From a virus: 64,000 bases of DNA. The notes under the pieces are model-generated. The model made no database searches, had not been told where the DNA came from, and saw only the letters and a program-made list of their open reading frames with translations. Made by a program: the position numbers and the translations under genes. Shown here in pieces: positions 7,801 through 63,513 of this stretch (position 1 is its first letter; each line of letters opens with the position of its first letter). The stretch spans positions 6,855 to 70,854 of the IMG/VR virus record IMGVR_UViG_3300003322_000414. The stretch is one strand, 5' to 3'.

Positions 7801-9358
7801 ACCTGTGGCGACCGTGACAGTCGTGGACCCGACGATGTACGATGTTGCCGGCACGATCACGGCCGTGCCCGGCGGCTCAGCCACGTCTACCATCCAGCGG
7901 GTGTACATCACTCCGCTCAACGAGGTCACGCAGCAGGTCGTCATCCAGTACGGCCAGACGGCGTACGCGAGCCTGGACGCGGCCATCGCTGCGATCGGCA
8001 ACCAGACGTTCGTCAAGAACCCCAACCTGGCCGACGCAACGCTCCTCGGTTACGTCGTCACCAAGAAGAGCTGCACCAACCTGTCGGTCGCTGCCGATGC
8101 GCGAGTGATCCAGGCGGCGAGGCTCAGCGGGAACTCCGCCGGTTCGGGAGACAGCCTCTCGCTGGCTCTCCTGCTCACGGGCGGGACGATGACGGGCGAC
8201 CTCGTCCTCGCTGCGGACCCCGACCAGCCCCTGGAGGCGGCGACAAAGCAGTACGTTGACGCGGGCGACGCCACGGCCGTCAAGTTGACCGGTGACCAGA
8301 CTGTCGCTGGGATCAAGACGTTCTCGTCCATCCCTGTCCTCCCGGCCTCGGACCCGACGACCGCGAACCAGGCGACGCGCAAGTCGTATGTCGACACTCT
8401 CGACGGTGCGAACGTCAAGCTGACCGGAGCACAGACCGTGGCCGGTGTCAAGACGTTCTCGTCTATCCCGGTCGGTCCGGCGACGAACCCCACGACTGCC
8501 AACCAGCTGACCCGCAAGGACTACGTCGACACGGGCGACGCGACGAACGCCTCTGCCATCACGACCCTCGACGGACAGGTCGTCAAGCTCACCGGAGACC
8601 AGTCGGTTGCCGGCATCAAGACGTTCAGCTCGATCCCTGTGGGACCGGCGAGCGATCCGACCACCGACAACCAGCTCACCAGGAAGCTGTATGTCGACAG
8701 CGGCATCGCCGTCGTCTCGGGCGACCTGGCCACGCTCGACGGCGAAGTCGTCAAGCTCACGGGTGACCAGAGCGTCGCGGGCATCAAGACCTTCTCCAGC
8801 ATCCCGGTCCTGCCGGCAAGCAACCCCACGACAGACAACCAGGCCACTCGCAAGCTGTACGTCGACACGCTTGATGGCGCCAACGTCAAGCTGACCGGCA
8901 ACCAGAGCATCTCCGGCGTCAAGACATTCTCCAGCGGAATCAGTGTCACAGCCGGTCTCGGATCCGACCGGTTCGCCAGGAAGACGGCGAACACCTCTCG
9001 TTCGAGCACGACCACGACCACTGTCGACCCGCATCTCGTGATCGCCGTCGAGGCGAATGCGACATACAACGTATTGGCCAACTTGGTTTGGCGTCCGTCC
9101 GGATCTGGCGGATTCCGATTCAAGTTCACCGGCCCCTCTGGAGCCGAGATGATTTATGTCGACAACGACAGCGGATCGGTTCTGACGATCAACTCCGAGC
9201 TGACGTTCAACGTCACCACCGGAGCCAGCGTTGGAGGAATCCTTGTTACCGGAGGAACGGCCGGTAACCTGTCCCTGTTCTGGGCTCAGAATGTCTCGAA
9301 CGCCACCGCCACCGTTCTCAACGAGCACTCCTCCGTCTGGGCTCGTCGGGTAGCATAA
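4862..9358 (+). CDS. large repeat-rich tail fibre / virion appendage protein
   Basis: 1498 aa; 10 GDTMTGxLxLxxDP..KxYVD repeats and 9 VKLTGxQxxxGxKTF repeats, motif types typical of phage fibre shafts. Confidence 0.75.
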   Translation: MAIPEGVETVTISSCTPLTLPDGTLIRGHIRFVAPDLNLIADEDYIFGGESAAELCHGEFSITLVPPDATGITPTGWTYTAIAEFVNAPGWTRYVDITKDNPTVCFDDVIVLTPGDVTNPDTTFVRKAGDTMTGALILSGDPVAPLQAVTKQYVDNAFDPDQFVEITGDTMTGPLVLSGDPSIALGASTKQYTDAQAAAAQSAAEATAAAESVSLTGDTMTGLLVLSGDPVAALGAAPKQYVDQAEADAVSSATAIAAAESVSLSGDTMTGPLVLSGAPAIGNGAATKDYVDAQAAAAQAAAEATAAAESVSISGDTMTGALVLNADPLVALGAATKQYVDQAQADAEANAAAESVSIAGDTMTGQLVLFGDPNTALGAAPKQYVDAGDAATLAAAAAESVSLSGDTMTGELVLFGDPTVALGATPKQYVDGLDSENVKLTGDQTISGIKTFTSIPVGPASDPVSNDQLTRKFYVDALDAQNVKLTGDQTVAGIKTFSSIPVLPGSDPVAANEAVRKAYVDTLDAQNVKITGNQSIAGLKTFTDALAITDGSDVNLLTVTQTNVAATAGVMKLVAGNAAQQAFLGSYQGAAANSWAIRADGRYEAGDGTGARDTLLARIAAGVWQATSQIRVTGSAPSNAADLTRKDYVDGLDAQNVKLTGDQSIGGIKTFTSSPIVPDPTTDQQAASKAYVDTGDDARVAVAGDTMTGALVLYGDPMAPLEAATQQYVDQQADAAQAAAEATAAAESVSVTGDTMTGPLVLSGDPATDLEAAPKQYVDNTIDAELLAQLGLSTGILLGGELNVNVGDDTMVDIGDTYGVVVDYVDTPTAPTVTKVTFAATTVTITNLSEPITWLLIDDTGTLSQQTTRPTNTQRRTHLVLGGVLVAGGGIIQDQSLPNYPPQALNQLYDLMDALGPFNVTGNLLTPAGANLQLAKTAGTVFNRGFNHFAGATLTRDPHISSTAAQNPVTMRYVTQVPAAPVATVTVVDPTMYDVAGTITAVPGGSATSTIQRVYITPLNEVTQQVVIQYGQTAYASLDAAIAAIGNQTFVKNPNLADATLLGYVVTKKSCTNLSVAADARVIQAARLSGNSAGSGDSLSLALLLTGGTMTGDLVLAADPDQPLEAATKQYVDAGDATAVKLTGDQTVAGIKTFSSIPVLPASDPTTANQATRKSYVDTLDGANVKLTGAQTVAGVKTFSSIPVGPATNPTTANQLTRKDYVDTGDATNASAITTLDGQVVKLTGDQSVAGIKTFSSIPVGPASDPTTDNQLTRKLYVDSGIAVVSGDLATLDGEVVKLTGDQSVAGIKTFSSIPVLPASNPTTDNQATRKLYVDTLDGANVKLTGNQSISGVKTFSSGISVTAGLGSDRFARKTANTSRSSTTTTTVDPHLVIAVEANATYNVLANLVWRPSGSGGFRFKFTGPSGAEMIYVDNDSGSVLTINSELTFNVTTGASVGGILVTGGTAGNLSLFWAQNVSNATATVLNEHSSVWARRVA

Positions 9359-9401
9359 GGTCCGAGGGCGGATGCGTGTCCGCCCAAGGAACGGAGCGAC
9401 C

Positions 9402-10340
9402 GTGTCAGAGCTGAAGCTGTACATCCTCGGCTATCCCCAGGAGTTCCGTGGGAACCACTGGAAGCGGGATGTGGAGAAGGCTGCTCGGAAGCTCGGCTGG
9501 GATGTGACCCACAGAGCCGCACAGGCGGCTCGAACGGAAGAGGTCCTGCGTGAGTGCAAAGACGCGGACCTCTTCCTGTGGTTGCGGACGCATCGCAACG
9601 ATCCACACGACGACGCATACGCGATGCTCCGCCGGATCGAGGACGCCGGGGTTCCGACTGTCGGAATGCACATGGACCTGTACTGGAACCTGCCCCAGCG
9701 AGAGCCGCTCGTGAACATCCAGCAGAATCCGTGGTGGTCGTGTCAGCGCGTCTACACGGCGGACGGAGGGCACCAGGCCGAGTTCGCCGAGCGAGGCATC
9801 AACCACTTCTGGATGCCGCCTGCTATGGGTGACGACCACTTCGGACTCGCCACGCTCCCTGTGCGGTGCAGATTCAAGAAGCGCTATGTGTTCGTGGGCA
9901 GCAACTCGCGAGGCATCCATGGTCCGCACCGTTCGGAGTTGATCCGCTGGGCTCGTCGCCGGTTCGGCCCCGGCTTCCAGCACTACGGCCAGCACAACAA
10001 GGTGTACAACGAGGATCTGAGCCAGGTGTACGCCGTGGCCAGGGTCGCGTTCGGCGACTCGGCAGAGGCGGACCGGTACTGGTCTGACCGTGTCCCAACC
10101 ACCATGGGACGCGGCGGAGTGCTGGCCTATCCCAACACGCCGGGGCTCGCTGAGCAGGGCTACAACGACGAGAACATGATTCTGTTCGACCGGTTCGACT
10201 TCGACACGCTCAGCTACAAGATCTCGGCCATGGACAACGACGACTTCGACCGGATGCGAGAGGCCGCGCTCACTGTCACGGAAGAACGACACATGTGGCG
10301 GCACAGGCTGCTGCAGATCAAGGAGGAGGTTCTGGGATGA
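9402..10340 (+). CDS. glycosyltransferase (GT-B, CgeB/Glyco_trans_1_2-like)
   Basis: C-terminal YWSDRVPTTMGRGGVL...RHMWRHR resembles this family; GTG 9402 after GGAG (ATG 9372 is an alternative start). Confidence 0.7.
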   Translation: MSELKLYILGYPQEFRGNHWKRDVEKAARKLGWDVTHRAAQAARTEEVLRECKDADLFLWLRTHRNDPHDDAYAMLRRIEDAGVPTVGMHMDLYWNLPQREPLVNIQQNPWWSCQRVYTADGGHQAEFAERGINHFWMPPAMGDDHFGLATLPVRCRFKKRYVFVGSNSRGIHGPHRSELIRWARRRFGPGFQHYGQHNKVYNEDLSQVYAVARVAFGDSAEADRYWSDRVPTTMGRGGVLAYPNTPGLAEQGYNDENMILFDRFDFDTLSYKISAMDNDDFDRMREAALTVTEERHMWRHRLLQIKEEVLG

Positions 10341-12652: not shown

Positions 12653-14488
12653 TCAGCTGTTGTTGAACACCAGAGGCAGGTGCTTGGACATCTGCGGGAT
12701 CGGTCCGCGGATCAGCACCCGACGGAACCGGCCGTCGCACACGACCACCTTGCCCCGGTCCTCGGAGGACCGCAGGAGGCGACCGATGCCCTGGACGAGC
12801 CGGGTGTGCATGCACTCGTTGCTGTACGAGAACTGTGCATCCCGCGTCTTCCCACCGATCGCGTTGTGCAGGAGCGTCGGAACGGAGTAGGGCATCTTCC
12901 AGATGGCCACCAGCGAGAGCGCCGGACCGGCGACGTCAACGCCCTTCCAGAAGCTCTCCACGCCCACGAGGATGGCGTTACCGTCGTTGCGGAACGCCTC
13001 GATGAGGGCGGGGTTCCCGGCCGTGTTGCCGGGCTCCTGGCACAGCACGAGACGCCGACCCTGGTACCGCTTGGCGGCCAGGTTGTACAGCCGATCGGCG
13101 TCCGCGTTGGACGTGGCCAGGATCAGCACGCCGCCTTCGGTGTTGTCGATGTGCTCGGCGAGGAAGTCCCAGCGCTGGTCGAACCAGCCCCGGTTCTGCC
13201 AGTCGCCGGGGTCCATGCCGGCATCCACGACGACGCCCTCGCAGTTGTTCCTCCAGTCGAACATCTGCGGGATGAAGTCCGGCTTGGCCGTGTGGTAGCC
13301 GGTCCGACGCGGCAGGGACGCCGGGACCGTCGCCGAGATCATCTTGGGCTGCCAGGTGCGACAGGCGTTCTGCACGTGGATGCCGACGTTGAGCACATCC
13401 CAGTGGATGCCACTCGGGTCGATCCAGGTCAGGCCGAAGCCGTCGTCCCACTCCTGCTTCTCGGACACCTTCATGGCGTCGATGCGCCGGTCCAGGAAGC
13501 CCATCGCGGTCTCGACCTCGTCCGGGTCCAGGTCCTCCAGCTCGGACAGCTTGGGGTCGTTCTTGACCTCCTCACGGAGCGAACGCAGGATGGCCAGCAC
13601 CTCGCCACGCTCTGCATCGTTCAGCGCCCGGTCCTTGAGACGCTTGGAGGGCTGCTTGGCGTCGGCCGACCGGCCCTCGGCGATCTCGCTCTGGATGTAC
13701 TTGTCCACGACGTCCTTGATCCCGTCCTGCAGGATCTTGGACAGGTCCGGACCCAGAGCACGGCCGGACGTCGGCGTGAGCTCCCAGCCCAGCGAGGAGC
13801 GCACCGTCTCGGGGAGCTGCTGCGCCTCGTCCACGTACGACTGGCCGAACGGGATGAGCTGGACCGCGCCATCGGTCTGGTCGTACAGCGTGGAGTTGAT
13901 CAGCCACAGCGACGTGTTGGTGAGGACGATGTCGGCCTCGTGGGAGAGCAGCCGGGCTCGCTTGGCCCAGCAGATGCCTCCGTCGTGTGCGCAGTCCTCG
14001 CGCATGCAGACGCCTTCGCCTGCACAGGAGACGCAGCGCCCACCACCGTTGCACGGGTTGATGACGCCGTCGATGGGCTTGGCCTTCTCCGGGCCACGCA
14101 TCCGCCCGGCCTCGACGCACGCCTGCATCATGGCGATGTACTCGCGGCTGTTCTCGTTGTTGGCGGACGCACACGCGTAGTGGCGACGCCCCTTGACGAC
14201 CGCGTACTCGAACCGGCCGGACTGCGCCATGCGGGGCAGGTCCTTCGCGGCGTACTGGTCGAGCAGCGTGTTGTCGGCGGCGATGATGATGCTGTGGTCG
14301 CCCGTCATCTCCGCGTTGGCCGCCGCGATGGCGATGGCGGCGAACGACTTGCCGACTCCGGTCGGAGCCTGGACGAACTTGGCTCCGGAGTCGCTGAGGA
14401 ATCCGATCAGGTCCAGCTGACGCGGCCGAGGAGTGATGCCGGCAGCCTCCATGATCTCCACAGCGGCCTCGTAGACTCCTTGGGTCAT
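12653..14488 (-). CDS. DinG/YoaA-family SF2 helicase
   Basis: QAPTGVGKS, VDEAQ, ISAT, FWKGVDV, QGIGRLLRS..DRG motifs; Cys cluster consistent with an Fe-S domain. Confidence 0.9.
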   Translation of the reverse strand: MTQGVYEAAVEIMEAAGITPRPRQLDLIGFLSDSGAKFVQAPTGVGKSFAAIAIAAANAEMTGDHSIIIAADNTLLDQYAAKDLPRMAQSGRFEYAVVKGRRHYACASANNENSREYIAMMQACVEAGRMRGPEKAKPIDGVINPCNGGGRCVSCAGEGVCMREDCAHDGGICWAKRARLLSHEADIVLTNTSLWLINSTLYDQTDGAVQLIPFGQSYVDEAQQLPETVRSSLGWELTPTSGRALGPDLSKILQDGIKDVVDKYIQSEIAEGRSADAKQPSKRLKDRALNDAERGEVLAILRSLREEVKNDPKLSELEDLDPDEVETAMGFLDRRIDAMKVSEKQEWDDGFGLTWIDPSGIHWDVLNVGIHVQNACRTWQPKMISATVPASLPRRTGYHTAKPDFIPQMFDWRNNCEGVVVDAGMDPGDWQNRGWFDQRWDFLAEHIDNTEGGVLILATSNADADRLYNLAAKRYQGRRLVLCQEPGNTAGNPALIEAFRNDGNAILVGVESFWKGVDVAGPALSLVAIWKMPYSVPTLLHNAIGGKTRDAQFSYSNECMHTRLVQGIGRLLRSSEDRGKVVVCDGRFRRVLIRGPIPQMSKHLPLVFNNS

Positions 14489-17156: not shown

Positions 17157-17624
17157 TCAGAACTGGCCGGTCGTCATGACGTGGCCGTCCTTGTCGTAGA
17201 CGGTCACGAGACCGTTCTTCGACTTGTAGCAGTCGGCGAAGGCCGAGGCGATCAGCGCGGCGTCCGGGCCGTGCCCGCCGAACGCGCCTCCGCTGTAGTC
17301 GGTCCACGCCTTGGGGTTGTCGAGGATGTCGTTCCAGTCGTCCATGCCGGACAGCTTGACGACGTGCTTGACGGCCTTGACCTCGGTCGGGGTGCCGCCC
17401 TCCTCGACGCACATCTGGAACTCCTGAAGCGGAGTCCGCTTGACCGGCGTCGGCTGCGGGTTGCTGTCGCCCTCTGACGGAGCCTTGGGAGCGGCGTTGG
17501 GAGCCGGGTTGGGCTTGGCGGTCGTACCGCCGTCGTCGGCGCTCGACACGGCGGACGCGACGACACCCAGGGCGACGATGGAGGCGAACCCGATCGCGAA
17601 CGCCTGAACCTTCTTGCTGCTCAC
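17157..17624 (-). CDS. membrane-anchored or secreted protein
   Basis: GTG start coupled to the thyX stop; N-terminal hydrophobic helix, Pro-rich linker, soluble domain. Confidence 0.6.
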   Translation of the reverse strand: MSSKKVQAFAIGFASIVALGVVASAVSSADDGGTTAKPNPAPNAAPKAPSEGDSNPQPTPVKRTPLQEFQMCVEEGGTPTEVKAVKHVVKLSGMDDWNDILDNPKAWTDYSGGAFGGHGPDAALIASAFADCYKSKNGLVTVYDKDGHVMTTGQF

Positions 17625-18673
17625 TTGTTGTCCATTCCCGGCCGACGGCCGATGGTGTGGAACAGCGGCTTGAACGACCGCTGCTCGTCCTTGGCCCAGG
17701 GCTTGTCGCACTGGCCCTCGGGGCTCTCCCAGCCCTGGAAGGTGCACTTGGCACCCATGCGGCCCTGGCCGTTGCACAGGCCGCACTTGCCCTTGGTTCC
17801 GTACACCTCGTCGATGACGACCTCGCCGTCGCCCAGGCACTCGATGCAGAGCGTGCCCGTCTTCTCGCACGAGATCTTGATGTACGGCTCCAGCCACGGG
17901 CTCTGCTCCAGGATGGCCGTGCGCATCTTGCGCATGACGTCGACCATCTCCCACATGAACATGGAGCAGCCCCGGTACGCGAACACGTTGATGAACTCGC
18001 GCACGGTGTAGGTGCACTGGATGAAGTTCACCGTGCCCTCGGGCAGGATGAAGCGCGCGTCCTGGTACGAGATGTCGCGGTCGCACGCGATCTGGTACGC
18101 GTCCCAGGCCGCCTCCGCCGCCTTCTGGAAGGCCGCACGGGCGACAGGGTCCTTCCAGACGGACAGCGGCATGCGAACGTCCGGCCGGTCGCCGTACCAC
18201 GTCGCTCGCTGGCTCTGCTGGTGGAAGGCCGCGTTGCGCGACCGGACCAGCTGATGGGTCAGAGCCCGGCTCGCGTTGAAGACCTGGAAGACGATCGACT
18301 GCGTCTCCAGCGCGGACTGGAGACCGCCCCGCATCATCTCCTCCCAGTCCCTGTCGTCGTCCCCGCCGTCCGGGGCGAGACCGACCGTGGCCCGCGTCGC
18401 GGACGACAGGACCGCCTTGAACAGTTCCTGGTCGACGCCCTGGACGAGCTTGACCTGCAGACCGGCGGTGCCCGTGTAGATGTCGCCGTTGTCCGTCGGC
18501 GAGACGTGCTCGCCGTCGTTGACCGAGTGCTTGTTGAACGCGACGTCGGCCAGCGTGATGTTGCCGTGGTCGTCCGGCTCGTGCACGTAGTGCGCGCTGG
18601 ATCCGAACGGAGCGAACGGCTGCTCCATGCGGTGGTTGTCCAGCCAGGCCGGGATGTTGTTACCGATGCTCAC
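17621..18673 (-). CDS. thyX: FAD-dependent thymidylate synthase-like protein (divergent)
   Basis: SRALTHQLVRSRNAAFHQQSQR, YQDARFILP and TVREF match the ThyX fold; the RHR motif reads RSR; CxxCxGxG Zn-finger insert near the C-terminus. Confidence 0.8.
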   Translation of the reverse strand: MSIGNNIPAWLDNHRMEQPFAPFGSSAHYVHEPDDHGNITLADVAFNKHSVNDGEHVSPTDNGDIYTGTAGLQVKLVQGVDQELFKAVLSSATRATVGLAPDGGDDDRDWEEMMRGGLQSALETQSIVFQVFNASRALTHQLVRSRNAAFHQQSQRATWYGDRPDVRMPLSVWKDPVARAAFQKAAEAAWDAYQIACDRDISYQDARFILPEGTVNFIQCTYTVREFINVFAYRGCSMFMWEMVDVMRKMRTAILEQSPWLEPYIKISCEKTGTLCIECLGDGEVVIDEVYGTKGKCGLCNGQGRMGAKCTFQGWESPEGQCDKPWAKDEQRSFKPLFHTIGRRPGMDNK

Positions 18674-23618: not shown

Positions 23619-24623
23619 CTAGCTGCGGTCGAGCCACGAGGCGAGCGTGTTCAGCCCGGCCTCCTGCTCCTTCGCCATGACGTGCTGGTCCTTCTGCGCC
23701 CGCTCGATGAGAGCCTTGGGCACGAGGGCGAGCGGCTCACGGTCCGCGCCGGGGTAGGCCTCGTGGTAGTACCGAACCTTGCCGTCCACCTGCTCTGTGA
23801 CGACGCGGGCCGGACCGACCTTCAGCTCGGCGCTGTAGGGGTAGTGGTTGTGGTGCTGGAGGAAGTCGCCCTCGGCGAACTCCTCGCTGGCGAATCCGTC
23901 GGCTCCGTCGTTCCGGACCTTGAAGCCGTACGCGCCGTTCTCGCTGAGCGCCCGGAGCGAGGCTTCCCCCGGCGACCCGTCGGCCGCCCCGATCAGCCGA
24001 GCGCCCTCGTAGGCCTCACGCCGGGTCGCTCCGTCCCGCCGCATCCCGGCGACGACCTCGTGCAGGATGACGGACGCCCTCCGCGGAACGTCCTCGCCGT
24101 CTCCGAGCGACGCGGCGTGCTCGGCCTCGGATTGCTGCTCCTCCAGCATCTGCGTGGCGCGGGCGGCGACGAGCTCGCGGAAGGGCGGGTTCAGCAGGTG
24201 CGACATGTTGAGCGCCGCACGCGGGTCTCCGCCGGTCATCCGGAAGAACGCGTCCACAGCGGCGTCGTCCTCGGTGTAGGCGTACAGCCGGTCGGCCTCG
24301 TCCTTGACGCGCATCATCTGGAGCGTCAGGAACAGGTGGCCGATCAGGTCCGAGATGACCTCCTCGGTCTTCTCGAACTCCAGCTTCTCGTCGTCCCACA
24401 TGGCCCGCTTCAGCTTGGACATCTTCCTCCAGATGTCCGCGTACTGGCCCTTGATGCCGAGGACGCTGGCGTTGCCGTCGTCGCCCCCGCCGTACTCCGC
24501 GTTCTTCCGGGCGAACAGGAGCGCCCACTCGGGCACCAGGTGCTCGATGATGTCGCGGAGCTGCTGGCTGTCGTCGGGCTGGAGGCCGTACTTGACCTGA
24601 TCGCCTTCGCGGCTGACGTACAT
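23619..24623 (-). CDS. protein with N-terminal DUF1599/Nmad1-like (nucleotide-modification-associated, all-alpha NTP-PPase-like) domain
   Basis: LFARKNAEYG..YADIWRKMSKL..EEVISDLIGH resembles the KKNxDYG..DK..R..EDTLxD pattern of that family, judged by eye. Confidence 0.55.
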   Translation of the reverse strand: MYVSREGDQVKYGLQPDDSQQLRDIIEHLVPEWALLFARKNAEYGGGDDGNASVLGIKGQYADIWRKMSKLKRAMWDDEKLEFEKTEEVISDLIGHLFLTLQMMRVKDEADRLYAYTEDDAAVDAFFRMTGGDPRAALNMSHLLNPPFRELVAARATQMLEEQQSEAEHAASLGDGEDVPRRASVILHEVVAGMRRDGATRREAYEGARLIGAADGSPGEASLRALSENGAYGFKVRNDGADGFASEEFAEGDFLQHHNHYPYSAELKVGPARVVTEQVDGKVRYYHEAYPGADREPLALVPKALIERAQKDQHVMAKEQEAGLNTLASWLDRS

Positions 24624-24625
24624 GG

Positions 24626-25312
24626 TTACTTTCCTCCGGAGATCTCGACGATGGTGCCGGTCAGGTAGGTGGGGGACTGGAGCAGGTCACGCATGACCTG
24701 GGCGATCTCTGCCTTGGTGCCGCGACGTCCCATGGGGATCATGGAGCGCTCGTACTCGCTCGCCCGCTCCTGCGACCAGCCACGGATCGCCGGGACCGTG
24801 GCGTCGATGTAGGCCGTCATGTCCGTGTTGGCGATGATGCCGGGCGCAACGGCGTTGACCTGCCAGCGCGGTGCCAGCTCACGAGCCGCGCACCGGACAG
24901 CCATGTTGATGGCCGCCTTGCTGGAGCAGTACGAGATCGAGGTCCGCATTGCGATGCGGCTCGCGTCCGACGTGATGGCGACGATGGAGCCCGTGTGTTC
25001 CGGGAACCGGCTCACGTGTGCGTCCAGCATCCAGATGAAGCCCTCGACGTTGACGGCGAACGTGTCGTCCACGACGTCGTCCGTGATCTCGCCGATCCAC
25101 TGGAGCGTGTTGACGCCCGCGCAGTAGACCAGATAGTCGAACGGGCCGTTCTCGCTGATGTACTTGTGGACGGAGTACGGACTGCGAACGTCCAACTCCT
25201 CAACGCTCGGCGTGAGCCACTCGACCCCGCCGAAGCGCTCGTCCGTCTTGGCGTCCTCGACGAACTGCGCCCCGATGCCGGAGGTGCCTCCGATGACCAG
25301 GCCCTTACGCAT
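24626..25312 (-). CDS. short-chain dehydrogenase/reductase
   Basis: GGTSGIG Rossmann motif, YCAG, YCSSK (YxxxK), VNAVAPG. Confidence 0.9.
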   Translation of the reverse strand: MRKGLVIGGTSGIGAQFVEDAKTDERFGGVEWLTPSVEELDVRSPYSVHKYISENGPFDYLVYCAGVNTLQWIGEITDDVVDDTFAVNVEGFIWMLDAHVSRFPEHTGSIVAITSDASRIAMRTSISYCSSKAAINMAVRCAARELAPRWQVNAVAPGIIANTDMTAYIDATVPAIRGWSQERASEYERSMIPMGRRGTKAEIAQVMRDLLQSPTYLTGTIVEISGGK

Positions 25313-44633: not shown

Positions 44634-44671
44634 GGCTGCCTCCTTGGGGCTTCGTTCGGGCTGTTGATAGA

Positions 44672-44785: not shown

Positions 44786-45109
44786 TCAGTGCATCGTGTC
44801 GATCGGGTTGGCCGGGATGATCGCCTTGACGCCCCGGAACTCCCCGGCGTCCACGATCGCGCCGAGCTCCGTCTGGAGCAGCGTTGCCAGCCACGTGGCG
44901 TCGATGTGGTCGGGGACCTCCCAGAAGCCGTCCAGCGCGACCTGCTCCTCGATGGCGGTGAGCAGGTCCTCCCGCATCTCGACCAGCTCGTCGGTGGTCT
45001 TCTCCTTCATCAGGGTCGGCACGACCGGGTTGAGCCGGTTGAGGTCGTACGACAGCACCGACACGACGATCGCGATCTGATGCTTCTCGTGCTCGGCCGA
45101 GTGGACCAT
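44786..45109 (-). CDS. early hypothetical protein
   Basis: CCAAGGAGG RBS; promoter GTTTAC-N18-TATAGT at 45164-45193; hairpin at 44743-44773. Confidence 0.7.
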   Translation of the reverse strand: MVHSAEHEKHQIAIVVSVLSYDLNRLNPVVPTLMKEKTTDELVEMREDLLTAIEEQVALDGFWEVPDHIDATWLATLLQTELGAIVDAGEFRGVKAIIPANPIDTMH

Positions 45110-45275
45110 GGTGCCCTCCTTGGGGGCTTGGGGCCGACCCTCGCGGTCGGCCTTACACTAAGAACTATACCCCATCTGGAGTCTGGAGTAAACCCCTTCT
45201 GGGAAACTTGTTGTATGGCCATCTGCCGAGACGGCCGCCTCCCGGTGGGGGAAGCGGCCGTGGGCGTTGCCTCGG

Positions 45276-46046: not shown

Positions 46047-46091
46047 GGTTGCCTCCTGGGGGCTTCGGTCGTTCCCTGCCTTACGAGAGTA

Positions 46092-46121
46092 ACTATACTC
46101 CAGATTGGAGGTCGGCGCTAC
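46092..46121 (-). promoter_or_regulatory. early promoter GTAGCG-N18-TATAGT
   Basis: Exact motif match. Confidence 0.8.
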
Positions 46122-46287
46122 CCTCTTCTGAGGATTTGTTGAATCGGATTTGCCGGCATCTGCAGGGGGCTGGAGGGCTGAGCCGCATAGGTTAAAGCCC
46201 AGCGGACCTCCAGATGCCGGCATATGGCCATCTCCACATGCAGAGAGGCCCGCCCTCCGGAGTGGAGAGCGGGCCTCGCCGGGTCGG

Positions 46288-46560
46288 TCAGATCTCGCCG
46301 TCGAACTCGACCAGGTGGGCGTAGTCCAGGTCCATCGCGTCGGGGTCGGCGTCCAGGACCTCGATCATCTTGTAGCCGACCGGGTTGACGTCGTCCATCG
46401 CGGCCCAGTAGGCGTAGGCCTCGGACTCGCCGGGGAAGTGCTCGATGACCTCGTGCCACTGGCCACGGATCCGGCCGGTCGCCTCGACCGTGCCCTCGAT
46501 CTCCTGGGTCGCGCGGATCCGGGCGATCAGCGCCTCGTTGGTGTTCTCGGCGTCGAACAT
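46288..46560 (-). CDS. early hypothetical acidic protein
   Basis: CCAAGGAGG RBS; hairpin at 46245-46277 after the stop. Confidence 0.7.
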   Translation of the reverse strand: MFDAENTNEALIARIRATQEIEGTVEATGRIRGQWHEVIEHFPGESEAYAYWAAMDDVNPVGYKMIEVLDADPDAMDLDYAHLVEFDGEI

Positions 46561-46598
46561 CTTGGCCTCCTTGGGGCTCTCACTTGCTGACAGTAGTA

Positions 46599-46628
46599 AC
46601 TATACCCTACGCGGGGTGGAGGCGCTAC
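46599..46628 (-). promoter_or_regulatory. early promoter GTAGCG-N18-TATAGT
   Basis: Exact motif match. Confidence 0.8.
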
Positions 46629-46650
46629 CCTCCACCCCGGTTGGATTTGA

Positions 46651-46902
46651 CTACTTGGCGTCGGGCTGGAAGGTCTCGCCGATCCAGTAGCCGGTGCCCA
46701 CCGCGCCCCACAGCACCGTCTGGTAGCCCTTGCCCTTCATCTCCGTGGAGAGCTTGGCCAGGGACTCGGCGTTGTTCCGGACCTTGCGGACCTCCAGCAC
46801 CTGGCGGTCCTCGCCGTAGCCGGTCTTGAAGGCGGCGGTCGCCCAGCCGTTGCGGCCGACGCGGTACTCGATGCGGATCTTGGGGAGCTGGTTCTCGGTC
46901 AT
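46651..46902 (-). CDS. early hypothetical protein
   Basis: CCAAGGAGG RBS. Confidence 0.7.
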   Translation of the reverse strand: MTENQLPKIRIEYRVGRNGWATAAFKTGYGEDRQVLEVRKVRNNAESLAKLSTEMKGKGYQTVLWGAVGTGYWIGETFQPDAK

Positions 46903-46943
46903 TCGGGTTGCCTCCTTGGGGCGTTCTCTCGCTTACAGTAAGA

Positions 46944-46973
46944 ACTATACTCCATTCTGCAGGTCCGCGCTAC
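46944..46973 (-). promoter_or_regulatory. early promoter GTAGCG-N18-TATAGT
   Basis: Exact motif match. Confidence 0.8.
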
Positions 46974-47148
46974 CCTGCAGTGGACTTTTCTTCAAGATTC
47001 TTTTGGAGGCATGCCGGCTTCAGGCTCAGTGGATTTTGAGCATCAAACCAAGTCTACTCCAGATTGGTCCAGATGGAAACCCCTCCGGCACAACTTGTTG
47101 AAATGCCGGCAGCCCGGTCCCGAGGAGGGACCGGGCCACCGCCGCGAC

Positions 47149-47406
47149 CTAGAGGCCGAGGTCCCGGAGGTCCGCCGCGCGGGCAGCGTCCAGGTAGGCC
47201 GCCGTGGGCTCCGAGCCGTCCGACGGGTCGGCCGCGTCCAGGGTGACGTAGGAGTCGCCGTCGGGCCGCGCCCAGAAGGAGAAGCCGCACTCGGGGACGG
47301 AGGCGTCGAACTCCACCCACGGACCGGCCACGCGGCCGGTAGCAGAGGCGGGGTAGCGCGGGTCGTCGGTGGAGTCGGCGATGACCTTGGCGTTGAAGTC
47401 GGACAT
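47149..47406 (-). CDS. early hypothetical protein
   Basis: GAAGG RBS; promoter GTTGCT-N18-TATACT at 47451-47480. Confidence 0.65.
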   Translation of the reverse strand: MSDFNAKVIADSTDDPRYPASATGRVAGPWVEFDASVPECGFSFWARPDGDSYVTLDAADPSDGSEPTAAYLDAARAADLRDLGL

Positions 47407-47569
47407 TTTGCCTTCCCGGTCGGGGGACCTTCCCCCTTCCTTGTAGTTTAAGTATACCTGTTGGCGTCCAGAAAAGCAACTCTGCAACTCAGATGCCGGC
47501 AAGATTCTTTTGGAGATTTTGGACATGCCGGCAGGCCCCACCCCGAAGGGCAGGGCCACCGACCGGCGA

Positions 47570-47788
47570 CTAGCAGCCGGAGCAGTCCGGGTGGGAGAAG
47601 CAGGCGGTCCGACGGCAGGCCATCGAGTGCGGGTGCGCCATGCGGCCGCAGTCCAGGCAGACGTGGGACAGACAGAACCGGCCAGCGGGCAGCGACAGGC
47701 AGTCGACGCAGGAGTAGGTAGCCAGCGCCGTAACGGACAGCAGGCGGACGTAGAGGGCGGAGAGCGGGACGAAGACGGGAGCGGACAC
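47570..47788 (-). CDS. small Cys-rich protein
   Basis: GTG after CCAAGGAGG; several CxxC motifs. Confidence 0.5.
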   Translation of the reverse strand: MSAPVFVPLSALYVRLLSVTALATYSCVDCLSLPAGRFCLSHVCLDCGRMAHPHSMACRRTACFSHPDCSGC

Positions 47789-47897
47789 GATAGCCTCCTT
47801 GGGGCTTGTTGACTAAGAGAAGCTTACCCTACGAACTGCAAAAAGAAAAGTCTCCAAAGGGGTTTTCTTTGGACTGCAGTTGGGGTATAGTTCTAGT

Positions 47898-48050
47898 ATG
47901 GACAACGAAGAGAACACGAACCCCGAAGCTCCCTCCGACTCCTGGACCCTGTACCAGATCGAGCAGGCGACCCGCCGTCGGGAAGCGCAGATGGACGAGC
48001 TGGAGATCCTCTCCCGCCACCTGCACGACCCCGAGGGCAACCCGCTCTAG
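47898..48050 (+). CDS. 50-aa protein, probably translated from a leaderless mRNA (not in the ORF track)
   Basis: ATG 6 nt after TATAGT (47886-47891), no SD; MDNEENTNPEAPSDSWTLYQIEQ... Confidence 0.55.
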   Translation: MDNEENTNPEAPSDSWTLYQIEQATRRREAQMDELEILSRHLHDPEGNPL

Positions 48051-48195
48051 CGGGTGGGGCGGGGCCGGTCCTCCGGGGCCGGTCCTGTCCGTCCAAGTCC
48101 ATGCCGGCTGGGGGTAGCGGACTTGGTGTACAGTAGGGTAGAGTTGTTGTTGTGAGGGCGGGCAGGTGGCCCGCCCCAGTCCCCAAGGAGGACGC

Positions 48196-48393
48196 ATGAG
48201 CAAGCCCACGGCCGACATGACCAAGGCCGAGCTGGCCCAGTACCTGGCCGACAAGTGGTACCCGTCAGAGGAGGGCAACGCCAGCGCGGCCGAGTCGTAC
48301 ATGAAGTACACCAAGCACCAGCTGCTGGAGCAGGTCGAGCACGCGCGTGGTGAGAGGGCCACGTCGGACCTGACCTACAAGTACGACCACTGA
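48196..48393 (+). CDS. early hypothetical protein
   Basis: Promoter GTAGCG-N19-TAGAGT (48114-48144), CCAAGGAGG RBS, hairpin after the stop. Confidence 0.7.
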   Translation: MSKPTADMTKAELAQYLADKWYPSEEGNASAAESYMKYTKHQLLEQVEHARGERATSDLTYKYDH

Positions 48394-48719
48394 CAGACGC
48401 AGAAGAGGCCCGCTGCCCCGGTTGGGGTGGCGGGCCTCCTGCTTGCCGGCACCAGGCGACAGGGTCGCAGTGGTCGTGTGGCTCCTATGCCTTGCGTGCC
48501 GGCAACCTGGTGAGGTTGCGTCCTCAGCTGTTGGTCGCAGCCTCGTAGTCGGCAAGGTCGCGGATCACGTCCACGGTCTTGCGACTTGGGACAAGCTTAC
48601 CTCGTCCGCGCCACGCGGGGTCGCACACGCCCGCAAGCACCTCGGGCACCGGCCTGGAGTCCTGCCGGCATGCAGCCGCCTCCGGGCTTGGGCAGTCCCA
48701 CGGACACCACGCACACTGA

Positions 48720-49004
48720 CTACTTGCCGAGGGCCGAGTCATCGATCTCGAAGTCCATGTCCGAGAATCGCGGCTCACCGCAGATGTTGTGCAGGTGCTG
48801 CGAGAACACCACCGGCACGCCGTCGGGGCCGATGAACATCGGCTCGATGCGGTCGTTGCCGTCGTTGTCCACGTCGACGACGGCCCATGCCAGGACGTCG
48901 TACTCCATGAACTTCTCCTTGAAGTCTCCGCTTCCCTTCTCCCACTCAGTGCGCACGCACACCTTGAGGCCGGGCTGGACGGGCGTGATGCTGCCGATCT
49001 TCAT
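48720..49004 (-). CDS. hypothetical protein
   Basis: Starts 1 nt after the primase stop. Confidence 0.6.
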   Translation of the reverse strand: MKIGSITPVQPGLKVCVRTEWEKGSGDFKEKFMEYDVLAWAVVDVDNDGNDRIEPMFIGPDGVPVVFSQHLHNICGEPRFSDMDFEIDDSALGK

Positions 49005-49005
49005 G

Positions 49006-51837
49006 TCACTTCTCCACTGTGAGCTTGAGCTGGCCGTCCGCGCTGATGCGGAGACCGATCATGACTGCACGGCCCTTGAACGGGTCGCGCCTGTACTTGG
49101 GGTTCTTCTCGTATCCCAGCTCCTCCAGTCGGTTGCCGAACGCCTTGAGGCCGGGCACGTCACCCTTGAGGACGTGCTCCACCTTGCACCAGGCCTCGAA
49201 CATCCTGTGGAGCGGCGTGACCTGCGCCACGTAGCGATCGCCGTCCTTCTCCTCGGAGTGCTCGCCGACCTCGATGTCGCCTTCCTCGACGGCGTGGACG
49301 ATCCAGCGCTGAACGATGTCCGCGTCGGTCCTGTAGCCCATGGAGGCGTTGGCAACCTCCTCGGGCGGGAACAGCCCCTCCTCGCGGTACATGCGGAGCC
49401 CCTCGACCATCCAGGCCAGGACGCCCTCAACCTCGCCGGGGAACCCGCCTTCACCAAGAATCTTGTCCGACAGCTTCTCGTCGCGGTCGGGGTGGCCCTT
49501 GGGGAACGCCACGGTCCACGGGACGACCTGGATGCGGTTCCAGATGGCCTCGTCCTCGGCGTTGATCCGGCTGAGGTGGTTCGTGGCGACGAGCACGAGG
49601 CACTCGGGCTGCCAGCGCTTGTTGCCCTCGGCGTAGTTGCCTCGCGTGGAGACGCCGTCGCCACCCGTGAGCTGCTTGACGAAGCGCTCGTCCAGAGGCT
49701 CGTTGGGTGCGAGCTCGCTGGACACGACGAAGCGCTTGCCCTTGATGGCGTCGCGGTCCGGGTCGCGACCGCCCGTGTCGAACCGGCGCTTGCTCAACGC
49801 TCCCTCGGCCAGCGTTGCGCTGTAGGTGCTCCCGAGCACCTTCTCGATGACCTTGAGGAAGATGGACTTGCCGGTGTCGCCGACGCGGCTGTACAGGAAG
49901 GCGATCAGCTTCTGGTCGCCGTCGCCCGACATGGCGTAGCCGACCAGCTTCTGCAGATACCGGCGCGTCTCCTCGTTGGGCTGGTTCGTGGCCAGATACC
50001 CGGTCCAGATGGGCGCGGTGGCCTCGGGGTTGTAGCGCACCTGGCAGATGCGCGTGTTCATGTCTTCGAGCCGGTGCGGGCCGAGCTCCAGCGTCTGGGT
50101 GTTGATCTCGCCGTTCAGCACACAGAACGTGCCGCGCACATTGTCGAAGTCCTCCTCAGTGACCGAGATGCCCGGCTGGTGCTCCAGCTGACGGACGGCT
50201 TCCCGCATGCGCGCGCCATCCTTGCACTTCTCGATCCACTTGAGCGTCTCCTGGTACAGGCCGTCAGCCTGCTCCCACGCCAGCCGGTCGCCCAGGAAAT
50301 CGGCGTGCTCAGCGCTCTGGGCCGCATAGCCCATCGTCTGGGCCGGTGCCTGGGCGAGGGCTCCGTAGCGCCCGAGGAGCGCCTTGTAGGGCTTCCCGGA
50401 GGCGTTCAGGACGTCCCAGTCGCTCGGGAATGCCGGCATGTCCGGATCCTTGTAGTCGAACACCTCCGCGAACTCCATGTAGTCCGTCAGGTCGGAGGAG
50501 GCCGCCATGACGAGCGCGCCGGTGTCCTGCCCCCAGTGCGTGCCTGTCCAGGTGCGCCACGTTCCCTCGTTGCCCTTGGTGACGCGACGGAACACCTTGC
50601 CGTACAGGTCGAACATCCGCTTGCCGTTGCCCTTGTCGTTGGGCTCGTTGTTGGCGGTGACGCCGATGTGCCCCTCGAAGGCCGGGTGGAACGCGGGCCA
50701 GTCGGTCGGGTTGACCTGCTTCTCCGGGTCGGCCTCCAGCTTGGGCCGCTGCTTGACCTGCTTCTTGTCGTACAGGTCCTGGCCCTTGAGACCGAGATAC
50801 TCCAGGAGTGCAGCCAGGCCCGTCTCGCTCTGGTCGGTGCAAGGTCCCTGAGAGGACTCGCACCACATTCGGACGCATCCCTCGCCCTGCTCAAACTCGA
50901 AGCTGGGATTCTTGTCCTCGTGATGCGGGTTGGGGCAATTGGTCTTGTATCTGCTGCCGGCAATCTTGTCCAGATAGTGCCCCTTGGCCTCCAGCGCCTT
51001 GATGAACCGTCGCATCGCCGGTCCCTGGGGCAGGTCGGAGTCTGACAGGACCATCTTGGTGCTGCGCTTGTTGCCCGCCTCCTTGGGCGCGCGAGCCTTG
51101 AGGACGTCCAGCTTGATCTTGTTCAGATCCTCGATGGGGCTTCCGAATTCGAGGTGGTCTCGCAAGTCCTTGCCGGTCTTGGCCTCGCGGAAGAACACCT
51201 TGATGCTGGCATCCACGGCCTTGATCGATCGGAACTTGCGAATCGCGCTTGCAGCGCCCGGGAAGTCGACTCCGTCCTCATTGAAGCGCTTCTGGTGCTT
51301 CTCGTCAAGGTGGTCCCGGTCCACGATGACGTACACCGTGCCCTTGAAGCCTCGGAGATGTTCGGCAACCTCCTCGGGGAACTTGGTGCCCAGGTGCGTT
51401 GTCGTGGCGTAGACGTGGCTCAGCGCCCACGCAGCCTCGCAGTCGCCCTCTCCCTCGGGGATGTAGAGCTTGTCCGCCGGGTTGCGGCGAGCCACGAGCT
51501 CCTGAATCCTGTGCATACCGTACAGAAGGCTCTGGTGGTGCATCGACTTGCGGTCGAAGTGCGGACAGTACCGGAACGTCTTGTCGACCTTGCCGGTGAA
51601 GTCACCAGGGACGCGGATCTTGTACCGGAAGCGCGAGAACAGCCGCTTGCCGTCCGCGTTGTAGTACGGGTACAGGTGCGTCAGCTCGCCGTACACGCGC
51701 ATATCCGTGTTGCGGTCGCAGTCGCACTCGTCCGTGGGCTTGGCCGGGGGAGAGTACTTAGCCAGCTGGACACCGGGCGTGTATGTGATCAGCTTGATCC
51801 GCTCTCGCTTGCGCCGACGTGTTGGCTCTGTTGCCAA
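49006..51837 (-). CDS. DNA primase-helicase (Toprim-like N-terminus, D5-like SF3 helicase C-terminus)
   Basis: YIPEGEGDC, VIVDRD, GKDLRD; GDTGKS Walker A, FVVSSE, VATNH. Confidence 0.88.
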   Translation of the reverse strand: MATEPTRRRKRERIKLITYTPGVQLAKYSPPAKPTDECDCDRNTDMRVYGELTHLYPYYNADGKRLFSRFRYKIRVPGDFTGKVDKTFRYCPHFDRKSMHHQSLLYGMHRIQELVARRNPADKLYIPEGEGDCEAAWALSHVYATTTHLGTKFPEEVAEHLRGFKGTVYVIVDRDHLDEKHQKRFNEDGVDFPGAASAIRKFRSIKAVDASIKVFFREAKTGKDLRDHLEFGSPIEDLNKIKLDVLKARAPKEAGNKRSTKMVLSDSDLPQGPAMRRFIKALEAKGHYLDKIAGSRYKTNCPNPHHEDKNPSFEFEQGEGCVRMWCESSQGPCTDQSETGLAALLEYLGLKGQDLYDKKQVKQRPKLEADPEKQVNPTDWPAFHPAFEGHIGVTANNEPNDKGNGKRMFDLYGKVFRRVTKGNEGTWRTWTGTHWGQDTGALVMAASSDLTDYMEFAEVFDYKDPDMPAFPSDWDVLNASGKPYKALLGRYGALAQAPAQTMGYAAQSAEHADFLGDRLAWEQADGLYQETLKWIEKCKDGARMREAVRQLEHQPGISVTEEDFDNVRGTFCVLNGEINTQTLELGPHRLEDMNTRICQVRYNPEATAPIWTGYLATNQPNEETRRYLQKLVGYAMSGDGDQKLIAFLYSRVGDTGKSIFLKVIEKVLGSTYSATLAEGALSKRRFDTGGRDPDRDAIKGKRFVVSSELAPNEPLDERFVKQLTGGDGVSTRGNYAEGNKRWQPECLVLVATNHLSRINAEDEAIWNRIQVVPWTVAFPKGHPDRDEKLSDKILGEGGFPGEVEGVLAWMVEGLRMYREEGLFPPEEVANASMGYRTDADIVQRWIVHAVEEGDIEVGEHSEEKDGDRYVAQVTPLHRMFEAWCKVEHVLKGDVPGLKAFGNRLEELGYEKNPKYRRDPFKGRAVMIGLRISADGQLKLTVEK

Positions 51838-51900
51838 CGGATGCCTCCTCTGTGGTTCTGGGTCGTGCGGGTGTTACGTGCGCGTTGAGAAGGCTACGCG

Positions 51901-52263
51901 CTAGAGCTCGTCGGGCTCCAGGTCCTCGATGTCGCCGTCCTTGTCGGGCTGCGCGGTACGGGTGCGCGCGAGCGCCTCGGCGTTGGTCTCGACTGCGTCG
52001 GCGGTGTAGTCCTCGTCGTCGAGGTCGAAGAGCATGTTTGCGAGAGAGGACAGGTCCTCCTTCGTGAAGAACTGGCGACCCAGCAGGATCTCGCTCTCGA
52101 CGCGAGCGAGCGAGAGAAGGCGTCGGCCCTCGTCCTCCATGTCGGGCTTGGACTGGTTGACGCCGCGCCCGATCATCGCGATGGCGGTGGTCATGCGGCG
52201 CTGCAATTCGGGGCTTGCGACCTTCTTGGCCACTTTGCTGCTCCTTGTTGTTGGCTTCGGCAT
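51901..52263 (-). CDS. hypothetical protein
   Basis: 120-aa ORF upstream of the primase. Confidence 0.6.
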   Translation of the reverse strand: MPKPTTRSSKVAKKVASPELQRRMTTAIAMIGRGVNQSKPDMEDEGRRLLSLARVESEILLGRQFFTKEDLSSLANMLFDLDDEDYTADAVETNAEALARTRTAQPDKDGDIEDLEPDEL

Positions 52264-52746
52264 CGGGGTTGACGCCGAGGGAACTACCTTACCTTACCCG
52301 GTCTTGGGGCGTTTCGGAATTGGTGAATTGGGTGAATTCTGAGTTTATGCATGCCGGCGGTGGGTCGGAGGGCGGGAGGGGTTCAGAAGCCCCCCTCGGC
52401 CCCTCCGTGTCGAAATGTGCTCTGACCTGCGCATATATGGGAGGAGCGGGGGAAAGGGGGAAGAGGGCCCTTCTCTTTCCGGGAGATATCTTTTTAGGTC
52501 TGGTCCTCGGGGCTAAGGCCGAGGGTTACTTTTATGTTGTTTTTCTCTGGGTTACCTACCTACTCTCTCACGGAGCTCTACGTCATTTTTCCCCTCTTCC
52601 CCTCTGATTAGAGAAGAAGCGCAGGTAGACAAGGGTTTGAGTCGGAGGGGAATGGGAGGGGAAGTGGGAGGGGAACGGAGGGAAAGGAGGGATTCTGAGG
52701 GGCGGCTGATATGCAGAATGCCGGCTTGTTGGATGGCGTAAGGTAA

Positions 52747-62996: not shown

Positions 62997-63334
62997 GCTT
63001 GGTGACGCACCTGCTCAAGCAGACCGCCGATGTCTATCGACGGACTGAAGTGTCGGACGGGCAAGGCGGAGTGACGTACTCCTATGCCCTGCTTGAGAGC
63101 GGACGCAGAGTCAAGATTGACCAGGCGTCCGCCAGGGAGCAGTTCGAGGCGGAGCAGGCTGGTGCATCCTTGACCCACAAGGTGTACCAAAACCATGACG
63201 ACGACATCCAGCGCGGCGATGAGTTTCGCCAGGGCTCGGATCGTTTCCGTGTGATGAACGTCGTCAAGCCCTCGACGCCCGGCGTGTACCTGCGCGCTGA
63301 CGTCGAGTTCATCCAGAGCGAGCAGGAGAGCTGA
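62993..63334 (+). CDS. head-to-tail stopper
   Basis: DGQGG, DIQRGDE, position. Confidence 0.75.
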   Translation: MSLVTHLLKQTADVYRRTEVSDGQGGVTYSYALLESGRRVKIDQASAREQFEAEQAGASLTHKVYQNHDDDIQRGDEFRQGSDRFRVMNVVKPSTPGVYLRADVEFIQSEQES

Positions 63335-63336
63335 TC

Positions 63337-63513
63337 ATGATGGATGCAGAGAAGCCCTCCCAGGAGGCGAAGCCGATCGGTCCCACAGAGGCACGAGAGC
63401 GGGCGGAAGCTGCTGCCCGTGCCGGCAAGTGGGACGAGTCCACTGCGTGGTCATTGCTCGGCCTGCTCGCTCTGGAGCGGCGAAACACAGGAGGAGGTCG
63501 ACGTGGGCATTAA
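63337..63513 (+). CDS. 58-aa hypothetical protein (not in the ORF track)
   Basis: Fills the gap between the stopper and gp10-like genes. Confidence 0.45.
   Translation: MMDAEKPSQEAKPIGPTEARERAEAAARAGKWDESTAWSLLGLLALERRNTGGGRRGH

Follow-up and report, generated by a model that had tools for sequence, protein, structure and literature searches.

An over-represented GCCGGC-centred palindrome and a T-flank footprint of restriction-site avoidance in BN-cluster Streptomyces phages

The window analysed here is a stretch of 64,000 nucleotides (bases 6855-70854 within the 74.5-kb IMG/VR record IMGVR_UViG_3300003322_000414), and sequence comparison with relatives places the phage it comes from in the BN cluster of Streptomyces phages, a lytic cluster. 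The 8-bp palindrome TGCCGGCA is multiplied about fifteen-fold in this phage, and its core, the hexamer GCCGGC, is never found in the window without a 5′ T or a 3′ A. The preferred reading, to which a probability of about 0.45 is given, has two layers: a thymine-linked shield would protect T-flanked restriction sites in the DNA of these phages, and TGCCGGCA would in addition be a recognition site under selection.

The nearest relatives of the window phage, at ~84-87% nucleotide identity, are Gibson, Rooney, Wentworth, Dryad, phiRKBJ001, Lizz, PHTowN, and ShakeNBake, and Yara is a more distant BN relative. The cluster has been described as one of lytic, circularly permuted phages (PMC8852317). 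In the window, late genes are carried by the plus strand and replication and early genes by the minus strand, as determined with our own simple gene caller. The G+C content is 64.8%, lower than the ~68% assumed in the initial annotation.

That annotation had counted by eye at least 45 perfect copies and listed example positions, all of which proved correct. The exact number in the window is 47, and the array spans 7846..63427:

TGCCGGCA, copies 1-16 of 47, starts at 7846, 8608, 8811, 10524, 12219, 12548, 13216, 14437, 15768, 18828, 23461, 26865, 27367, 27532, 31460, 32266
TGCCGGCA, copies 17-32 of 47, starts at 34964, 35751, 36291, 37326, 37824, 39142, 39172, 40071, 40329, 41551, 42776, 43901, 44261, 44721, 44729, 45513
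TGCCGGCA, copies 33-47 of 47, starts at 45605, 46151, 46215, 47104, 47494, 47526, 48444, 48497, 48663, 50431, 50955, 54289, 55817, 60715, 63420

Markov models of orders 0-5 predict 2.1-5.9 copies per strand in the whole 74.5-kb record, and the order-1 model predicts 1.8 in the window. In coding DNA, 28 copies are observed versus 2.8 +/- 1.6 (maximum 7) in 200 synonymous-codon shuffles, which preserve the protein sequences and the codon usage of each gene, and the excess over such shuffles is likewise found in four relatives. TGCCGGCA is the top over-represented 8-mer of the record (z = 34). The strong over-representation first claimed is thus borne out against both backgrounds (47 copies against 2-6 by Markov models, and the coding shuffles). 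The reported scarcity of other GCCGGC contexts is equally real. The 56 GCCGGC of the window comprise 47 with both flanks (T..A), nine with one flank only, and none with neither, where order 1 predicts 34; outside T..A there are 9 against ~50 expected. In coding DNA the shuffles predict ~58 GCCGGC, ~55 of them outside TGCCGGCA, and none of the latter is observed, which supports the proposed general avoidance of GCCGGC. Excess and depletion both survived the Markov and codon-preserving k-mer counts that had been suggested as a check. A literature search for TGCCGGCA returned only unrelated uses, for instance cos ends and primers.

The sites are spread genome-wide with a Poisson-like density and without fixed positions, and they lie uniformly along genes. 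The span 37-49 kb, named earlier as the densest, contains 22 of the 47. Outside called genes, in 13% of the window, 19 of the 47 sites (40%) are located (p = 4e-6), and a 2-3-fold intergenic excess recurs in four relatives. In the whole record, 32 copies fall within genes, in the frames nnT-GCC-GGC-Ann (22), nTG-CCG-GCA (9), and TGC-CGG-CAn (1). The preference extends beyond the octamer: the base just outside is preferably A or T (0.33 and 0.37; background 0.18 each), with C disfavoured on the 3′ side, and the second position outside is preferably G or C, so that the extended form is W-TGCCGGCA-W (W, A or T) followed outwards by S (G or C). Helical phasing of neighbouring sites was rejected (Rayleigh p = 0.3-0.6), and so was the regular spacing of a priming or structural array (coefficient of variation 1.0-1.4). 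One pair of sites and the half-flanked copies have particular locations:

39142..39179: conserved site pair, 30 bp apart, present in all four close relatives
39675..52725: one-flank GCCGGC, nine copies, all intergenic, starts at 39675, 39707, 43070, 43516, 43562, 47013, 48103, 52353, 52720

Seven of the nine one-flank copies read GCCGGCATG. One-flank sites also recur within a longer repeated word, ctgagGCCGGCatgag (39675-39712 and 43562-43567), which forms an inverted pair at 39675 and 39707 and lies in stretches without a called gene that the initial annotation had flagged as non-coding RNAs. The GCCGGC at 43070 falls inside the sixth of the hammerhead ribozymes proposed there. An Rfam scan of window positions 36000-53000 at the gathering threshold matched no family and left these ribozymes unconfirmed.

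The number of copies differs strongly among related genomes:

TGCCGGCA copies: whole 74.5-kb record 51, Wentworth 49, Gibson 48
TGCCGGCA copies: phiRKBJ001 35, Dryad 34, Yara 5, Gordonia phage Foxboro 0

None of these genomes has a GCCGGC that lacks both T and A as flanks. The excess is confined to a Gibson-like subclade whose DnaE is at least 89% identical to that of the window; among IMG/VR relatives, those with DnaE identity of at least 89% have 3-6 copies per 10 kb, whereas at 85% there are 0-1. In Yara, seven GCCGGC are found, all of them in the early region, and three of the seven lie upstream of the same promoter family as in the window (see below). This restriction argues for an ancestral state of few early-region sites, and the genome-wide array appears to have arisen on the branch leading to the Gibson-like subclade.

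Several observations are relevant to selection on the word. Orthologous sites are conserved in 37-57% of cases, compared with 28-35% for random 8-mers. Many sites stand opposite sequences with two or three mismatches in sister genomes (e.g., CGTCGGCG or GTCCGTTG). Of 32 site/non-site pairs, 21 encode different amino acids, and the amino-acid change rate is 27% under the site versus 17% in flanking codons. Streptomyces DNA (four replicons of 0.46-2.35 Mb, 5.4 Mb together) has 22-37 TGCCGGCA per Mb versus 734 per Mb in the window, and a control word reaches 52-64 per Mb in the same replicons, above the density of TGCCGGCA. Twelve unrelated Streptomyces phages have 0-2 copies each. Turnover, amino-acid changes, host density, and the unrelated phages together argue that the excess is lineage-specific and positively selected at the DNA level, and that it is neither a host word nor a by-product of composition. 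A host Chi- or uptake-type word was rejected, since in Streptomyces replicons TGCCGGCA is about half as dense as the control word.

GCCGGC is not the only avoided palindrome. The genome is depleted about 20-fold for CCGCGG (2 observed/48 expected), GGCGCC (3/68), CTCGAG (3/58), GGGCCC (2/32), and CCCGGG (5/30), a pattern compatible with avoidance of restriction. BN phages avoid CTCGAG and five of the eight palindromic hexamers made of G and C alone; they do not avoid CTGCAG, GCATGC, CAGCTG, and GAGCTC, which contain T and are purged by other Streptomyces phages. NaeI-, SacII-, NarI- and XhoI-type enzymes occur in actinomycetes. Avoidance is shared with unrelated phages of the same host genus: GCCGGC, CCGCGG, GGCGCC, and CTCGAG are all at zero in Xkcd426, and GCCGGC, CCGCGG, and CTCGAG in JustBecause.

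The survivors of the five depleted palindromes follow a rule of flanks. In the window, 13 of 14 have at least one T/A flank and six have both, for instance the following:

12704..12711: TCCGCGGA, which together with the copy at 24080-24087 represents the only two CCGCGG of the window, both T..A-flanked
8875..8882: TGGCGCCA, one of three GGCGCC in the window; T and A flanks are both present here and at 56645-56652, and 63530 keeps just the 5′ T

Ratios of observed to expected counts were pooled over six BN genomes, which are related and not independent samples, so that the pooled counts overstate independence, and the Markov expectations for flanked words are approximate. For the contexts T..A / one flank / no flank they are:

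GCCGGC: 19.3 / 0.45 / 0.000
CCGCGG: 0.15 / 0 / 0
GGCGCC: 0.71 / 0.08 / 0.01
CTCGAG: 0.41 / 0.51 / 0.04
GGGCCC: 0.51 / 0.20 / 0.12
CCCGGG: 0.63 / 0.31 / 0.27

Only a 5′ T spares a site; a 5′ A does not. It extends to AGGCCT and does not extend to words depleted for other reasons, such as CTAG. Only TGCCGGCA is enriched among the T-hexamer-A words of avoided palindromes.

Two phages whose hypermodified thymidine is chemically proven, Pseudomonas phage M6 and Delftia phage phiW-14, served as positive controls and show the same footprint. In phiW-14 the ratios (same contexts) are 1.12 / 0.83 / 0.04 for GCCGGC and 1.06 / 0.62 / 0.00 for GGGCCC; in M6 they are 0.55 / 0.30 / 0.00 for GCCGGC and 0.55 / 0.12 / 0.00 for GGCGCC. 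TGCCGGCA itself is not enriched in either (M6, 1 vs 1.8 expected; phiW-14, 5 vs 4.5). In the negative controls SF3 and Foxboro, the avoided sites that survive have no T flank. The DNA of phiW-14 resists NaeI, NgoMIV, ApaI, and NarI, and a flanking TG, as in tGCCGGC, has been suggested as a possible cause of the resistance (Flodman et al. 2019, PMC6449724). The footprint is observed, and for its mechanism we infer that a thymine-linked modification, on the T or on the paired adenine, most likely shields T-flanked sites in BN phages. The set of avoided words, in which G/C-only palindromes are avoided and T-containing ones tolerated, is consistent with such a shield.

The rule may also be explained without any base modification, if host enzymes of the two-site type IIE/IIF (NaeI, NarI, SacII) cut T-flanked sites poorly and these were purged last. 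Strong flank-dependent site preferences are a property of NaeI, NarI, and SacII, and for every word except GCCGGC the survivors are few, which also speaks for this explanation. However, the same intolerance of a 5′ T would be needed in six or seven recognition sequences, and the footprint of BN phages matches that of the thymidine-hypermodified M6 and phiW-14. Moreover, T..A-flanked copies are completely purged in Xkcd426 (0 vs 8.6 expected), whose isolation host is the same strain as that of Gibson and Wentworth, and in JustBecause (0 vs >16), which infects S. lividans. The exemption would therefore be a property of the BN phage DNA and not of the enzymes, and poor cutting is considered an unlikely account. 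The initial annotation had supposed that TGCCGGCA was kept against avoidance as a binding site or methylation target. Its selected excess is real, but the T..A flanks are not special to GCCGGC: survivors of CCGCGG, GGCGCC, CTCGAG, AGGCCT, and GGGCCC are T-flanked too, and a general thymine-linked shield fits the retention better than a site-specific binder or methylase.

A shield may explain why TGCCGGCA is tolerated and does not explain why it is enriched 19-fold in the pooled BN genomes while TCCGCGGA and TGGCGCCA remain unenriched. The second layer is suggested by the location of the sites in the early region. A family of early promoters, GGGTAGCG-N17/18-GGAGTATAGT, is found at 42728-48144 on the minus strand, with one plus-strand copy at 48114, and is conserved across all BN phages including Yara. 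Each promoter precedes a short gene, with an A/T-rich stretch like aaagaatcttgaagaaaagt upstream. Six of the eight early promoters of the window have a GCCGGC within 60 nt upstream (p = 5e-7), and many intergenic copies come right after a stop codon or terminator hairpin and before the A/T-rich stretch that leads to an early promoter. Four arrangements illustrate this:

42728..42783, minus strand: early promoter GTAGCG-N18-GGAGTATAGT with TGCCGGCA upstream, in the order terminator hairpin, site, A/T-rich stretch, promoter
44672..44736, minus strand: two abutting TGCCGGCA (44721, 44729) ahead of an A/T-rich stretch and an early promoter
46092..46158, minus strand: TGCCGGCA, followed ~30 nt downstream by the GTAGCG element of an early promoter
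46944..47018, minus strand: one-flank site (aGCCGGCAtg), then an A/T-rich stretch and an early promoter

The earlier remark that sites often lie just upstream of early promoters beside an A/T patch is therefore right for part of the excess. TTGCCG as a −35 element was rejected, with a −10 partner at 16-18 nt in only one of 138 sites.

In the preferred two-layer reading, restriction pressure would act on BN phages against GCCGGC, CCGCGG, GGCGCC, GGGCCC, CCCGGG, and CTCGAG, and a modification of T, or of the A paired with it, would block cleavage wherever a strand has a T directly 5′ of the site. Copies without a shield would be purged, half-shielded ones would survive only where they are needed, in intergenic DNA, and fully shielded T-site-A copies would be neutral. 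In the second layer, each genome of the Gibson-like subclade would owe its 34-51 copies of TGCCGGCA, in practice W-TGCCGGCA-W, to positive selection. This selection is seen in the comparisons above, and its proposed reader is a sequence-specific factor, probably dimeric and phage-encoded; the palindromic 10-bp preference, the early-region origin, the boundary position, and the selection signature all fit the recognition site of such a factor. The location of the ancestral sites, also those of Yara, at early-region gene boundaries would suggest a role in controlling or insulating early transcription, and their spread into coding DNA would give the behaviour of a highly iterated palindrome (HIP). 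Between the phage and host binders first envisaged, the host is disfavoured because TGCCGGCA is not enriched in Streptomyces DNA; a phage protein is most likely, and none was identified.

Certain points weigh against this reading, beginning with the limits on the pooled flank ratios given with them. CTCGAG is avoided although it contains T, and so the shield would have to be context-dependent or partial. The known enzymes of thymidine hypermodification (ThyA-type dUMP hydroxymethylase, 5-hydroxymethyldeoxyuridine (5-hmdU) DNA kinase, and aGPT-Pplase) were not found among the proteins scanned with Pfam and NCBIfam. The same scans, which covered the larger proteins of unknown function and part of the small ones, gave no DNA methyltransferase, and this also speaks against the methylation target of the initial annotation. 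The distance from site to promoter ranges over 5-44 nt, a poor fit to the position of a classical activator. Family scans, gene presence/absence, and structure search identified no TGCCGGCA-binding protein, and the tandem helix-turn-helix protein described below was undetected by tblastn in Dryad, which is motif-rich.

Two related explanations for the excess assign a role to the shielded sites as such. They may be uncleavable decoys that occupy two-site GCCGGC enzymes and thereby spare the few half-shielded intergenic sites which the phage needs, or Chi-like self-marks that stop a phage helicase-nuclease engaged in degrading host DNA. GCCGGC alone has both half-shielded sites that were kept and a surplus of shielded ones, the density is genome-wide and Poisson-like without fixed positions, TGCCGGCA is ~30 times sparser in the host, and the phage also encodes a Cas4-family nuclease, a RecA-like ATPase, and two helicases. 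Similarly to Chi-like words, there is about one copy per 1.3 kb. On the other hand, DNA decoy sites are without known precedent, uncleavable cognate DNA activates type IIE enzymes and does not inhibit them, and Yara retains half-shielded sites without an array. Known Chi sites are asymmetric and host-specified, unlike TGCCGGCA, which is palindromic, without strand bias, and not enriched in Streptomyces. Both roles are considered quite unlikely.

Another explanation is a methylation-linked process, in which TGCCGGCA or its GCCGGC core would be methylated by an enzyme of the phage or of its usual host and the excess would come from biased mismatch repair. Its format is that of HIP1 in cyanobacteria, where a methylated hexamer forms the centre of an 8-bp palindrome (Elhai 2015, PMC4390886). 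Copies are found in coding and noncoding DNA, with turnover, and one-mismatch neighbours of the core are mildly depleted (23 observed vs 30-36 expected). The expected deamination neighbour, TGCTGGCA, is nevertheless undepleted (6 vs 5), gains often take two or three changes that include transversions and amino-acid replacements, and Streptomyces DNA has no excess. With neither a methyltransferase nor a Vsr-like gene among the scanned phage proteins, such a process is regarded as decidedly improbable. A function at the RNA level, by which self-complementary UGCCGGCA in transcripts would pair with other copies or be read by an RNA-binding protein or nuclease, would suit the conserved pair at 39142 and 39172, 30 nt apart in a noncoding stretch, and the several sites that overlap start codons as AUGCCGGCA, but it is highly improbable because most sites are far from a partner (11 of 55 gaps between neighbouring window GCCGGC are ≤200 nt), a single-stranded target needs no perfect palindrome, and enrichment is equal in genes of both orientations.

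The genes that may be relevant to the two layers of the preferred reading are the following:

17621..18673, minus strand: divergent ThyX-like protein (350 aa) that carries part of a Thy1 domain and scores under the thyX cut-off of NCBIfam
23619..26718, minus strand: enzyme cluster beside dnaE, with a 334-aa protein without known family, a short-chain dehydrogenase/reductase (SDR), a HAD hydrolase-like protein, and a protein with an FAD-binding motif
34972..35277, minus strand: dCMP/cytidine deaminase-like protein, a modification candidate
15670-16173, minus strand: long-form HNH endonuclease, present in the motif-rich subclade, short or missing in Yara and locus L039
16186-16386 and 16826-17053, minus strand: small Cys-rich proteins of the motif-rich subclade, short or missing in Yara and locus L039
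41692..42003, minus strand: 103-aa protein with two helix-turn-helix motifs, the sole clear DNA-binding protein found in the early region

The ThyX-like protein is a candidate maker of a modified pyrimidine, as a lead only. In phage SP-15, which has hypermodified T, there are two Thy1-family proteins, one of them a proposed hydroxymethyl-dUMP synthase (PMC5977210). The cluster beside dnaE is a possible nucleotide-modification pathway, its HAD-hydrolase and FAD-binding matches being weak and sub-threshold. The short-chain dehydrogenase gene in it (24626-25312, minus strand) is also present in the IMG/VR relative L041, but all five named BN phages used for comparison lack it. The sole methyltransferase is of the FkbM type and adjoins a glycosyltransferase, and the pair represents a further modification candidate.

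The motif-rich phages differ from Yara by twelve small genes. As a route to the binder this comparison was unsuccessful, with no informative family except the HNH endonuclease, whose C-terminal extension of ~90 residues is found only in the motif-rich subclade; an ESM Atlas look-up of the extension gave no match. Three paralogs (32279-32848, 38576-39049, and 42098-42682, minus strand) combine a helical N-terminal domain of ~70 residues with Lys/Ala-rich and acidic tails and belong to PHROGs 20596 and 34140, of unknown function. They are among the first candidates for the binder, along with the tandem helix-turn-helix protein, the long HNH endonuclease, and the small Cys-rich proteins, but structure gave no lead: for their shared N-terminal domain, AlphaFold gives a confident helical bundle (pLDDT 84) without a PDB match at E <= 0.001.

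In comparison with known systems, the proposed shield comes closest to thymidine hypermodification as found in M6 and phiW-14 (Salmonella ViI is of the same class), where unflanked GCCGGC, GGGCCC, and GGCGCC are purged and T-flanked copies are near expectation. The likeness lies in the footprint and does not extend to the genes: in BN phages the footprint is known from sequence alone, with no recognised gene of the pathway, and M6 and phiW-14 lack the enrichment of TGCCGGCA. Strong depletion of 6-bp palindromes is shared with restriction-site avoidance in other phage genomes, whereas in BN phages the flanking base decides and one flanked form is in excess.

The array itself resembles HIP1 (GCGATCGC) and the alternate HIPs of cyanobacteria, which are also 8-bp palindromes on a 6-bp core of restriction/methylation type with an excess beyond codon usage (Elhai 2015, PMC4390886). 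As in those, TGCCGGCA is far above expectation in coding and noncoding DNA, and codon usage does not explain it. In contrast, HIP1 belongs to cellular genomes and is associated with orphan methyltransferases, while TGCCGGCA belongs to one lytic phage subclade with no excess in the host, no methyltransferase found, and a core that is otherwise strictly avoided.

Operator arrays offer a second likeness. The stoperators of cluster A mycobacteriophages and the conserved inverted repeats (CIRs) of phiC31 are tens of short operator-like sites, many at gene boundaries and near early promoters. They are 13-17 bp long, their repressors are known, and the phages that carry them are temperate; stoperators are also asymmetric and oriented. 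Many TGCCGGCA copies are likewise placed at gene boundaries and early promoters; unlike the operators, they are palindromic, 60% lie in genes, the phage is lytic, and no regulator was identified. The array is thus HIP- or operator-like but lacks the defining features of each, namely a cognate methyltransferase or a repressor and, for the latter, a temperate life style.

A bolder synthesis is offered only tentatively and is itself rather doubtful. BN phages would carry an undescribed thymine-linked modification, made by enzymes outside the known pathway and readable in their genomes as a 'T-flank exemption', and one subclade would have evolved a phage-borne iterated palindrome, TGCCGGCA, which a phage factor may read, possibly only when modified, in order to tell phage from host DNA or to control early transcription. 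If true, a new DNA base modification is predicted in cultured and archived Streptomyces phages (Gibson, Wentworth, Dryad, Yara, and others), and the array would be a tractable phage example of the HIP, whose function has been open for decades in cyanobacteria. The two sister subclades, with a ~ten-fold difference in copy number, are only a dozen small genes apart. The comparison of T-flanked with unflanked avoided palindromes, which separated M6 and phiW-14 from unmodified controls, is a possible sequence-only screen for T-modified phages.

The 74.5-kb record seems to be composite: the tail-gene block of its last 5 kb is repeated in the first 4.2 kb at only 82% identity, and proteins from window position 62.5 kb (62508-64000) to the record end are 97-100% identical to those of Gibson, compared with ~65-95% for the remainder. 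Probably two BN phages, or members of a permuted mixed population, were joined in the metagenome. The beginning of the window is also distinct:

1..7845: GCCGGC-free stretch of 7.8 kb, with tail-region genes highly divergent from BN relatives or without match in them

In this stretch, the tail-region genes at 1976-3243 have no match in BN relatives, and the 1310-aa protein ending at 1965 shows only 33-35% identity. The absence of GCCGGC from these divergent genes (window 1-3243) suggests that their donor likewise avoided GCCGGC.

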